63,834 nucleotides of DNA, filler included, from Lenisia limosa (GCA_001655205.1; 12 parts of 12 records of this genome joined end to end with filler, not necessarily neighbours in it), one strand, 5' to 3'. Shown: positions 47,483-55,441, numbered from the whole stretch's first letter. Notes: generated by a model not told the origin, from the letters alone. Program-made: numbers and translations.

Positions 47483-49243
47483 TTAGATGGCAGCAAGAGC
47501 CTAAAAGGGTGAGAAGAAAAAAAAAAATGGATAAGAGACAATAATATGGAAAAATTATACATCAAAAAGTATGCTCAAAAAAAACCGTCAATGATTAGCA
47601 ACCCCCCACGTTCTCGAGGTCCTTGATAAGATCCTCAACGGACTCGATTCCGACGGAAAGACGGCAGAGGGAGTCGGAGATGCCGGCGGCAAGGCGCTCC
47701 TCAATGGGGATGCCAGAGTGAGTCATGATGGCGCTAGTGGGAGTAAAATGAGGGGAAAGCCCAAATAAACTAAGTTGGCTGACAACACATTAGGAGACAA
47801 AAGACCAATATTGTTCTTTATCTATGATCAATATTATAGTTTTATCAAAACAGCTACCCCCCCCCCCCATACGGATGCTCAACAAGAGACTCAACGGCAC
47901 CAAGGGACTCAGCAAGCTGGAAGACACGGAGGGTCTCGAGGAAACGGCGAGACTCGTTGATACTGCGGGAGGGGGGGTAAATTGGAAAACACAAAAAAAC
48001 CCCAATCATCTCTGTTGGCTGACGAAACGAAGGAAATTTCGATGACTATTGGAGTAAAGGTACTTATAACGAACCGAATAAGAAACTTCAAATAGCATAA
48101 TTTATGTCAGATAACACATACCGCCATACCCACTATCCAATATGTATCATCACCCTCCATACCCACTATATTACATATACAGTGACCGGGGAAAGTCTGA
48201 ACCGATTTGCTATGGATATAGATCAAAATCACTGTATATAAGGTATAACAACCCCCCGTACCCGCCCTTGAGGTAGAGGCAGATCATGCCGGAGAAGCCG
48301 GTCATCTGCTTCTTGGCAACCTCGTGTTGGGGGTGCTGGGTGGAATAAACTTGGGAAATTTATGAAACAAAAAAGCAGGCTGACAACACACGAGGGTTGA
48401 AAACAACAAAACAAAGCCCAGGTCAGTCCCTTCTGCAGCACTGCATCCCATTAATAAGAAGGAAGTTTCAATGAATATGACGAGGGGAGAGGGGGGAGTA
48501 AATTGGATTACAGTTTTTTTAAAAAGAAGCCCAAAACCGCTCCGTTCGCCGTTCCGGTCCAATAAAATACCCGCATACAGACTTAAGTCCGGGGTAGACA
48601 ACTTTGTCAACCTTGGCGTGTCCCTCGAGGAAGGTGGCAACCTGGCGGAGTAAAATTGGAAAATGAAAATGGATGTATAAAACAAAAAATAAAGGGGGNN
48701 NNNNNNNNNNNNNNNNNNNNNNNNNNNNNNNNNNNNNNNNNNNNNNNNNNNNNNNNNNNNNACAATCGTACAAACCCCACACCTTCATGGCGTTCTCCTG
48801 ATGGCGATCCATACGGACTGCAAGGGTCTTCATGCCGCGGAGAGCAAGGAAAGAGTCGAAGGGAGAGGGGACGGCACCGGCGGCTGAGGGGGTGAGATCA
48901 TGAAAAAAATTACGACACCGTGCAATTAATTTTTTGAAGAAATAAATTGACAAGATTAGAAATTAAGCCGTCAAAAATTGAGTTTACATTACAATAGGTC
49001 GCACTTCAAAGTTTGCAATTATTTTTCAATTAATTGCACGGAGCCAAGAAAAACAATATTGCTCCTAATTTTAGATTTTTTTGTGAGGAAAAGTATCACT
49101 ATCTCTTTAATGTTTAACTACACATGCTGCCGTGTTCCTTAATATAATGTAGCATCTCATCCCTCCCTCCCTTCACCGTTCTGGTAGAAACGGAGCTTCT
49201 TAGCGAGTTCGTCGTCCTTGCAGGCGAGGACACCCATAACAGT
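47483..49243 (-). CDS. CTH: Cystathionine gamma-lyase / methionine gamma-lyase family, C-terminal seven exons
   Basis: [47 protein letters not shown]...|[25 protein letters not shown]...|[20 protein letters not shown]...[23 protein letters not shown]; 5' part cut by scaffold edge; CGL versus MGL not resolvable. Confidence 0.92.
48919..49040. mobile_element. MITE family F copy in a CTH intron
   Basis: TIR CGTGCAATTAATT...AATTAATTGCACG; interior similar to 47168-47282. Confidence 0.75.
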
Positions 49244-49414
49244 CTGGGGAGAGAGGGTAAAACGAAGGAACTTTCGATGAAGAATAAGCCATCACAAACA
49301 CGAAAAACCAACGCTAAAACTAGACAAAAAACCAGATGACAAACAAAAAAAAGCCTAAAATCAACTCTGTTGTTGACACGACACATTTTAAGCCCTTTAT
49401 ATATATATACTATC

Positions 49415-49514
49415 NNNNNNNNNNNNNNNNNNNNNNNNNNNNNNNNNNNNNNNNNNNNTTAATTAATTAANNNNNNNNNNNNNNNNNNNNNNNNNNNNNN
49501 NNNNNNNNNNNNNN
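49415..49514. other. Artificial scaffold-join spacer 9
   Basis: 44 N + TTAATTAATTAA + 44 N. Confidence 0.97.
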
Positions 49515-53690: not shown

Positions 53691-53812
53691 TATAAATAGG
53701 ATTTATCGAGGATTTATCGAGAATGAATCAGGAATTTAGAATTGAGACAAGCAAAAGCCCCCCTCCCCACTCTTTATCCCGTTTTTTCTCCGCTTCCTTC
53801 GATACAGTCACC

Positions 53813-55012
53813 TGGGTGTCAATCATGGCTACTGCCGCCCCTCCGACAATCATCGTGTCCAATCGCGGGGGTGCCTAATATGGTAAGTAGATGCCTCATA
53901 TTGTAAGTAGAACTACCAAAAATGGTAATATGGAAGAAACCTGCCTGATATGGTCTCAGCCCTCCCCCCTACCACGATACGTCCTCTGAGTTTGTCAACA
54001 GCATCCGTGTCTCCTCCGGCAATATTCTGCAGTCTTTCCTGCAGGGATTTCGGCTGCGGCTGTGATAGTGAGAGGCTATACGTGGAATATACATATCATA
54101 TGTTGGTGAGAGGCTATACGTGGAATATGCACGCGGTTCATGTTGTTGGGACATATGTATCCTCTCACATACAAAATTATACTACTAGCATATAAAATGA
54201 TATCGACATGCCTAACCCCCCCTACAGGTCTGACATACTCGTCAGCCTTCTGGATCGGGGGTGGGTACGGCGGCGGAGTGGGCGGCTTTGGCAAGGCTTC
54301 TATGCCTGGGCGGTGAGAGACATTGGGTAAAATTAGAATATTTATGAAACAAAAAAAGCTTCGGCAGGCTTCTATGCCTGGGGATATGGTGTATAAGATG
54401 AGAATAGACAGTGACAGCGATAAGTCTTGACCTATTTCCCTTACTATATATGATATAGTTTTTCGAGAGAGAGAAATAAAAAAAGGATGTATCTGGCCAA
54501 AGCCATCTACACCATTACGCTTATAAGAGATATTGGATTATAGTATAATAATATTCGTAATGACTCCTCCCTCCACTACACATAAAATACACCCTTCTAT
54601 CTCCTATATTCCCCCTGGCGGCTTATGTCTAGTTTTATCGTTAGTTGCTCGTATTTGTTATTGTTTTTTTTTTACTTTGTTTGGAGTTTCAGATTATTCA
54701 GATTATTCGACTCGTGATTAGTACCTTTACGCCAATATTCTTCATCGAAATTTTCTTCGTTTTACTCCCCCCCTCACATCTGCTTCTTGAAGGCGCTAGT
54801 ACCTCAATGCCCTCTTCATCTCCGCTGGGGGAGTAAAATTGGAAAATTTATGAAACTAAAAAAACCCAAATCAACTCTGTTGGCTGCCAAAACAGAAGGG
54901 TTGATAACAAAACAAACAGATCACCCCCCCCCCTCACTGGTTGCGGATTCGGATGTTTCCGGCGGCGTCCACTGAAAGTTTCGCTTCCGGCACCAACTCG
55001 ACCGGTTCCGGC
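53813..55012 (-). CDS. Hypothetical Pro-rich multi-exon protein (partial)
   Basis: PEPVELVPEAKLSVDAAGNIRIRNH|GDEEGIEVLAPSRSR|CIEALPKPPTPPPY...; phase-consistent GT-AG exons. Confidence 0.55.
54825..54937 (-). mobile_element. Intron composed almost wholly of repeat family E (Introner-like)
   Basis: GTGAG(G)n...CAACCC...GCCAACAGAGTTGATTTG...TTTCATAAATTTTCCAATTTTACTCCCCCAG; 3' part shared with the adjacent intron and with CTH introns. Confidence 0.6.
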
Positions 55013-55441
55013 CTGGGGGGGGGGGGAGTAAAATTGGAAAATTTATGAAACAAAAAATACTCAAATCAACTCAACTCTGTTGGCTAGAGACACACGAGGG
55101 TTGATACAAGGGGGTAATATGGTGGTATGTGGAGGGGCTATATGGTGGTTCTTTGAGTCAGAGAAATAATGTACAAAAACAACGGGATACCATAACCACT
55201 AGTAGATTAATAATCACTGAAACGTAACTTAAAATTAAAGACACGGGTCTGTGAAATTCGGTGGTCACCGGAATTTCTCCGAAAACTTGTTAAATTTTAA
55301 GTTAATTTTTAGTATCCCACTTCCTGTGTAATTTCATGTCCACACGTGAACGTGTTATATCCGCGCTTCAACGATAACTCACTTTTGTAATAATACACCA
55401 AAACTTCAGGTTTTGTAACCAGTAGTTTTTTTCTCATAGTC

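Follow-up and report, generated by a model that had tools for sequence, protein, structure and literature searches.

Introners are recognized by sequence similarity that reaches both ends of an intron, and partial matches are treated as secondary insertions, according to the accessible portions of two published accounts (PMC9860276, PMC12130899). The nearest precedent for the elements reported here comes from Micromonas, whose older introns contain remnants of introners as well as merged copies, as described in the available part of another (PMC3879977). In this report we examine a 63,834-nucleotide (nt) stretch of DNA from Lenisia limosa (GCA_001655205.1), hereafter called the window, in which two sequence modules, E1 and E2, recur immediately upstream of intron acceptors in unrelated genes. 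An earlier note on this DNA had read them as the trace of an intron-generating or acceptor-donating mobile element akin to an Introner. We find that E1 and E2 belong to a single high-copy repeat family that lies flush with intron acceptors. This E family, a real and surprising one, is best regarded as non-autonomous mobile DNA of introns and not as an Introner. Among the titles and abstract openings covered by our literature search, which left most subscription journals outside its scope, none concerns a family of repeats restricted to the 3′ ends of pre-existing introns.

Placement and anatomy of the E family

The window is intron-rich eukaryotic DNA with many intronic repeat families. Our intron set comprises 61 modeled acceptors, namely 56 complete introns plus five acceptor-only cases included because they bear E copies; genes whose frames could not be chained were omitted, including all of the scaffold at 1-14918. 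RNA supports eight of the complete introns and two exon starts, and the remaining models follow open-frame continuity. The RNA evidence comes from contigs of a public run of polyadenylated RNA that match the window (X2), which span six introns of the CTH gene and two of a coiled-coil gene. The spliced CTH exons encode exactly the last 178 residues of transcript protein P0001, which also sets the acceptor at 49244, and the transcripts indicate that five E-ended CTH introns are spliced correctly. Junctions in the hypothetical, LIM-like, paladin-like, and cyclase genes are predicted from open-frame continuity alone. The LIM-like exon gave a zinc-finger match only below the cutoff, the paladin-like exon gave no domain match in the same domain search, and neither the cyclase nor the gene at 20858 had a match when transcript proteins were searched. 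The copies and the tracts adjoining them are the following:

47963..48082, minus strand: E1 joined to a 5′-truncated E2 at a CTH acceptor; profile match, RNA-bridged (X2)
48336..48478, minus strand: CTH acceptor preceded by an E1 fragment and a long E2; profile match, RNA-bridged
near 48485-48507, minus strand: buried acceptor-like C-tract preceding the 48336..48478 copy
48642..48664, minus strand: CTH acceptor with a short (~22-nt) E2 3′ end; below profile threshold, RNA-bridged
47734..47807, minus strand: diverged E2 at the CTH acceptor of the intron after coding-sequence (CDS) nt 1049; 30 bits, RNA-bridged
49244..49376, minus strand: E2 fragment (49342-49376) upstream of E1 (49256-49286) at a CTH acceptor; P0001 and X2
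50957..51213, plus strand: E2 fragment, assembly gap, and E1 at the paladin-like acceptor; frame continuity only
53336..53451, minus strand: two stacked E1 modules at the LIM-like acceptor; frame only
54306..54364, minus strand: short E2 that ends at a hypothetical-gene acceptor; frame continuity across five exons
54358..54382, minus strand: repeat of the acceptor and first ~20 exon bases, resembling a target-site duplication (TSD), directly upstream of the 54306 E2
54701..54777, plus strand: E1 antisense to its host gene, 70 bits, 11 nt from the donor; its C-run is the G-run after the GT
54825..54914, minus strand: E2 occupying ~90 nt of a 113-nt intron in the hypothetical gene; profile match
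55013..55109, minus strand: E2 after a TTAC plus C-run tract, at an acceptor; profile match
57438..57459, minus strand: possible second antisense E1-type 3′ end, a 20-nt stub at a cyclase donor; gap-cut and too short to assign
57856..57923, plus strand: diverged E2 at a cyclase acceptor; 10 bits
61455..61723, plus strand: 5′ part of a long E2 after a C-run, then a 186-N gap, then C-run and AG, at a cyclase acceptor
63807..63834, plus strand: E1 truncated by the window end, within a cyclase intron and immediately downstream of an acceptor-like TTTAC plus C tract
45260..45339, plus strand: diverged E1/E2 hybrid at an acceptor of the coiled-coil gene; exon start from X2 record 9
44531..44649, plus strand: two stacked E2 parts entering a 189-N gap; profile match, acceptor hidden
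30529..30627, plus strand: E2 at the acceptor of a gene that, from its translation, is presumably BAR-like
27675..27740, minus strand: E2 with a terminal CAG, followed by a putative exon; 46 bits
32385..32508, plus strand: weak E2-like tract, strongly diverged, that occupies most of a 140-nt intron; by alignment only, below profile threshold

All copies in the earlier list were recovered, with intron last bases at 47963, 48336, 48642, 49244, 53336, 51213, 54306, 54825, and 55013, and the copy cut by the window end is identical to another E1 copy at 27 of 27 nt. However, that list was incomplete. Further copies lie at 47734, 45339, 57923, 61455, 30627, 27675, and 44531-44649, and weakly at 32508; the antisense E1 at 54701-54766 that adjoins a donor had been overlooked; and six of the 12 scaffolds carry a copy, rather than four. 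The claim that similarity exceeds a splicing signal stands, but the length of 30-70 nt given for it was too short. Similarity between copies extends past 110 nt, with 73-96% identity over as much as 110 nt and pairwise BLAST E values down to 6e-20; the 48642 copy, by contrast, measures just ~22 nt. Given this length and identity, and their occurrence in a minority of introns, we reject a mere extended splice signal.

E1 is ~65 nt long and E2 ~150 nt at full length. Both have an alignable ~30-nt 3′ core, after which come TTTTAC and a C-run of variable length, whereas the left (5′) ends of the modules vary widely. The TTTAC would fit the branch-point consensus for the canonical U2 found in the window; the corresponding small nuclear RNA (snRNA) gene, at 25380-25568 on the minus strand, carries the canonical branch-pairing sequence. 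Modules stack head to tail in every order (E1-E2, E2-E1, E1-E1, and E2-E2), as seen at 47963, 48336, 49244, 50957-51213, 53336, and 44531. Loci outside the window were examined in contigs of a public run of unrecorded type (X1), which contain 0.91 of the window's words and are possibly the source of the assembly, and so are not independent of it. These loci show recurrent E1-to-E2 and E2-to-E2 joints, and the C-run after the core is also seen at their loose ends. In P0124, a spurious open reading frame (ORF) on another contig, E1 runs straight into a long E2, and in the spurious ORFs P0125 and P0127 the long E2 begins after a probable C-run, as it does in the window copy at 61455. The proline runs at the ends of all three represent the C-run.

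The summed X1 depth at 48423 is 120,539, compared to ~29 for single-copy DNA. Summed depth does not equal copy number, for which our own bounds are ~130 to 4,100, but the value suggests that the family numbers hundreds to thousands of copies. No match to the exact motifs was found in scans of metagenome contigs, prokaryote genomes, and viral contigs. Folding was unremarkable in all eight copies folded, with z scores of -0.93 to 0.70 relative to shuffled sequences. As had been noted, there are no obvious terminal inverted repeats (TIRs): five of six E queries gave no inverted self-match, and the weak one from the sixth came from an adjoining E1. A small hairpin upstream of TTTTAC was dropped, as its apparent paired changes are also expected from CpG decay. 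We likewise rejected a gene in the open frame across the long E2, whose five close matches are singleton, unnamed, Pfam-free ORFs through other copies and whose other three are unrelated repeat proteins.

Placement was assessed with profiles built from 18 window segments. At an E threshold of 0.05 these gave 24 matches, the best at 94 bits versus 7.4 for the reversed window, although self-scores are inflated because the profiles were built from the same copies. Twenty matches fall within modeled introns, 19 of them in sense orientation; the other four are one in a cyclase intron, two that run into a gap, and one that is weak. A sense copy lies upstream of 14 of the 61 modeled acceptors and in nine of the 56 complete introns. 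In 12 of these 14 cases the last module ends no more than 20 nt from the AG; one of the remaining two lies 47 nt away with a diverged tract continuing to the AG, and the other is cut by a gap. For the seven gap-free complete introns the joint chance of flush placement is 2e-6, and orientation is 14:1 in favor of sense (p ~0.001). By comparison, seven placements of three other repeat families, three same-sense and four opposite, end 74-229 nt from the acceptor, and a palindromic repeat outside this control set ends ~35 nt from the 48884 acceptor. By gene, E copies occupy four of seven CTH introns, three of five in the hypothetical gene, two of 19 in the cyclase, and none of 10 in a gene we take from its motifs, without Pfam support, to encode a pyridoxal phosphate (PLP) enzyme.

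The C-run guides this placement, because the C-run of the antisense E1 at 54701-54777 coincides with the G-run of a donor, as may also be the case for the 57438 stub. A C-run of at least 4 lies upstream of six of 22 modules compared to a background of 9% (p 0.014). However, C-runs of at least 5 precede four of 47 E-free acceptors, and G-runs of at least 5 follow 13 of 56 donors. Since donor G-runs are at least as common and yet copies lie at acceptors far more often (rough Fisher p 0.001), C-run targeting alone is insufficient, and something specific to the acceptor, the AG, or the template strand is needed as well. The frequencies of exon-end AG and of donor G-runs do not differ between E and E-free introns. 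Long G-runs are seen right after the donor GT at, for example, 47872, 54937, 43497, and 57438. Many assembly gaps adjoin G or C homopolymers and may conceal further copies.

Relation to Introners

The E family is multi-copy, is found in unrelated genes, and is sense-biased, all of which are features of Introners. What it lacks is similarity at both splice boundaries. Among the nine complete E introns, the 3′ ends have a mean pairwise score of 24.5 versus 14.3 for controls, whereas the 5′ ends, with a mean of 12.5 (36 pairs) versus 11.9 (351 control pairs; p 0.07), are unrelated; pairs in these comparisons are not independent. In DNA-transposon-type Introners, a splice site supplied by a TSD, TIRs, or both are common, if not universal. 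Neither was found in E introns, where junction repeats measure 0-2 nt in all nine, compared to 0-5 nt in 47 others. Thus, the acceptor-donating part of the earlier proposal is supported by the shared 3′ end, sense bias, flush position, and high copy number, while its intron-generating part is not supported.

The E copies are probably, for the most part, residents of introns that they did not create. Comparison of intron positions was attempted with CTH, whose introns are located after CDS nt 654, 721, 822, 885, 959, 1049, and 1173. The best 80 of 585 CTH loci were each matched in one unbroken stretch, without introns to compare. These positions map at an offset of +1 residue to the 405-residue chain 5eig_A, presumably human CTH, and two of them map to c.724 and c.1052, candidate exon boundaries of human CTH that serve as a lead only. 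If these boundaries hold, two matches among seven introns would have p ~0.0025, and c.1052 would correspond to the E2-bearing intron at 47734.

Intron creation could nevertheless apply to a minority of E introns, because two introns are mostly element and the exonic +1 G is depleted. G follows three of 16 E acceptors versus 27 of 45 others (p 0.008, uncorrected, and one of about seven context tests). This scarcity could suit new introns, or it may be that insertions survive only where the old acceptor was weak.

Retro-copying and rival explanations

The common 3′ end with a simple-repeat tail and the 5′ truncation of copies are features of short interspersed elements (SINEs) and other retroposons of the type without long terminal repeats (non-LTR). 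Just upstream of the short E2 at 54306 stands a second copy of the acceptor with the first ~20 exon bases, 24 of 26 columns being identical. The duplication scores 34, whereas the next best intron scores 16 and the highest cross-intron score for this query is 24. Such a TSD-like repeat is the expected trace of a cut staggered between the C-run and the exon, and its 26 nt fall within the staggered-nick range of 8-30 nt given in the accessible text of one study (PMC5322556). That text also describes priming of tailless retropseudogenes by 2-18 nt of target complementarity. Retroposition of intron-derived RNA is described for small nucleolar RNA (snoRNA) retroposons (PMC1687206), and transposition to already-spliced positions has been proposed (PMC3443670), again judging from the available parts of these papers.

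Taken together, we tentatively favor a non-autonomous, retro-copied element that would be primed at the C-run and AG of existing acceptors and would extend or replace intron 3′ ends. The template might be the host's own intron RNA, either excised and debranched or still within the pre-mRNA, and therefore no promoter would be needed. At another acceptor whose template strand is nicked, the C-run and AG of this RNA could pair with the complementary G-run on that strand, and the paired end would prime reverse transcription by an enzyme encoded elsewhere. Copying would halt at variable points, yielding variable 5′ ends, and the upstream junction may form in one of two ways: with a staggered duplication (54358-54382), or through microhomology at the cost of some of the old intron end. 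Because the new end would bring a branch point, pyrimidine tract, and AG, splicing would continue and the copy would become a new template. Repeated insertions would stack modules in either order, and rare pairing through the C-run alone could give antisense copies at donor G-runs. Only sense, flush copies would be released again with that end, and thus the family would select its own placement. A bolder form of this model, in which a promoter-less, splicing-released, self-priming intron 3′ end propagates itself and, in a large fraction of introns including old ones, has overwritten both branch point and acceptor, is possible but rather doubtful.

Several observations weigh against retro-copying at existing acceptors. 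The analysis covers one 64-kb window, made up of 12 small scaffolds joined by spacers and containing 3,909 N. A TSD-like duplication is present at only one of 14 E acceptors, and a similar event at 45412-45735, where the last 12 exon bases are repeated in the intron by a G-rich tract, involves an E-free donor, so the 54306 duplication may stem from repair that acts at G/C runs in general. Open frames of at least 120 codons within the window yielded no reverse transcriptase motif, and no partner long interspersed element was seen there. Copying would also be blocked by a lariat whose branch lies 10-20 nt from the AG, unless it were debranched. The mean C content upstream of modules is not elevated (p 0.47), the long E2 has an apparently fixed start (in the 61455 copy and the spurious-ORF copies) that equally suits a discrete SINE, and the introns at 54825-54937 and 32369-32508 are mostly element. 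The scarcity of exonic +1 G points in the same direction.

A SINE of ordinary type, transcribed on its own and bearing a poly-C tail, would be inserted at C-runs by a partner long interspersed element, with selection retaining mainly the copies that leave a working acceptor. Such a SINE would fit the ~150-nt unit with its apparently fixed start, truncated copies and simple-repeat tail, the two bodies (E1 and E2) on a common ~30-nt 3′ core, the antisense copy at a donor G-run, and the single TSD-like case. We nonetheless consider it unlikely, given that no head derived from an RNA polymerase III transcript was detected (two copies gave no Rfam match at E 5 or 10, and no transfer RNA (tRNA) was found, although a degenerate head is possible), that donor G-runs at least as frequent as acceptor C-runs are rarely used, and that none of the 24 profile matches is a clear intergenic copy. 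About equally improbable is a route with no RNA step, in which breaks at G/C tracts by splice sites are repaired from the C-run end of another intron, through ectopic gene conversion or templated insertion that homogenizes acceptors. Most copies indeed lack a TSD, junctions often fall in T-runs or short shared words, a local duplication also occurs at an E-free donor, and copies cluster by gene, the best 3′ match being between neighboring introns of one gene. However, repair predicts neither hundreds to thousands of copies of one family nor a bias for acceptors over donors, and equally close matches cross scaffolds (96% for 44594 versus 54832).

Slightly less probable still is an aged true Introner that made the introns and kept its 3′ end for the splice signal while its 5′ part was lost or overwritten. 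The intron at 54306-54777, with antisense E1 at the donor and E2 at the acceptor, would then be a two-ended relic with inverted TTTTAC and C-run ends; the two mostly-element introns and the depletion of +1 G would fit as well, and partial remnants inside canonical introns are known in Micromonas, according to the available portion of that report (PMC3879977). Against this, 5′ ends are unrelated even where the 3′ cores are 90-96% identical, the junctions lack repeats (0-2 nt in nine of nine), modules stack, the inverted arrangement is seen in just one of nine complete introns, and one E2 intron may share its position with a putative human CTH boundary.

If retro-copying at acceptors is the correct reading, a mobile sequence that overwrites existing acceptors could homogenize and reshape splice signals genome-wide without intron gain. 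Introner surveys, as far as their accessible text indicates, demand two-ended matches, so E-like families would be missed. With its many natural copies, the family could also serve to test whether reverse transcription returns intron RNA to already-spliced positions, a step that the available literature presents as long debated.

Other features of the window and comparison with known systems

A weak E1-like match of 11.8 bits at 15797-15820 (plus strand), outside modeled introns, is due to chance or represents an old copy. Among other repeats, a palindromic ~100-nt family resembling miniature inverted-repeat transposable elements has ~30 copies (36 BLAST segments; for example, 37176-37275, 35478-35576, 49721-49818, and 8355-8454), with X1 depth up to 173,000 at 45067. 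Three more short repeat families, of 12, five, and five copies (for example, 2047-2100 and 54478-54523; 13611-13681; 54404-54442), are mid-intron where they lie inside modeled introns. Long inverted-repeat (foldback) elements occur at 47098-47352, 48919-49040, 13839-13946, and 37772-37934, and one occupies much of the CTH intron at 48884-49176. The gene likened to a PLP enzyme (41226-44165, plus strand) is complete-looking and has strong codon bias. GC donors are predicted for two cyclase introns, at 61056 and 62226, and a 163-codon open frame at 8905-9393 (minus strand) has more G+C than its surroundings and runs opposite to adjoining exon-like segments.

Helitrons have a 3′ hairpin and a CTRR end and insert between A and T. 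We rejected this assignment because most E copies end in CAG, the next base varies, and there is no significant hairpin. Introners in Micromonas, in dinoflagellates, and in surveys (PMC9860276, PMC12130899, PMC3879977; bioRxiv 10.1101/2020.10.14.339549) resemble E copies, in the accessible parts of these reports, in being repeated intronic sequences in unrelated genes that are sense-biased and carry a splice site, and those of Micromonas also include nested or merged copies and remnants in older introns. However, E similarity is confined to the 3′ end, with no TIRs or TSD-derived donor, and therefore published Introner pipelines would discard E copies as secondary insertions. Fungal introner-like elements (PMC3609843, available in part) likewise comprise hundreds of related introns that degenerate over time, but they are whole introns with stable predicted structure, whereas E copies fold no better than shuffled sequences.

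The proposed mechanism has closer parallels among retro-copied RNAs. Tailless retropseudogenes of therian L1 (PMC5322556) are likewise proposed to be primed by complementarity of a 3′ stretch without a poly-A tail, but the accessible text describes them as dead-end copies of tRNA, snRNA, and similar RNAs at A-rich targets, whereas E copies would use a C-rich acceptor and each could template again; no L1-like enzyme was seen in the window. snoRNA retroposons (PMC1687206) derive, in the available account, from promoter-less, intron-released RNA, and their sense intronic copies can be processed again. They differ in having A-rich tails, ~14-bp TSDs, and a structured guide RNA, and in not being flush with acceptors, while E copies have no Rfam match and no unusual folding. 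Finally, transposition by reverse splicing (PMC3443670), as far as the accessible text goes, predicts the sense-only copying to existing intron positions that E copies resemble, but it moves whole introns whereas only 3′ parts are copied here. The antisense donor copy and the acceptor duplication of the E family need a route other than reverse splicing.

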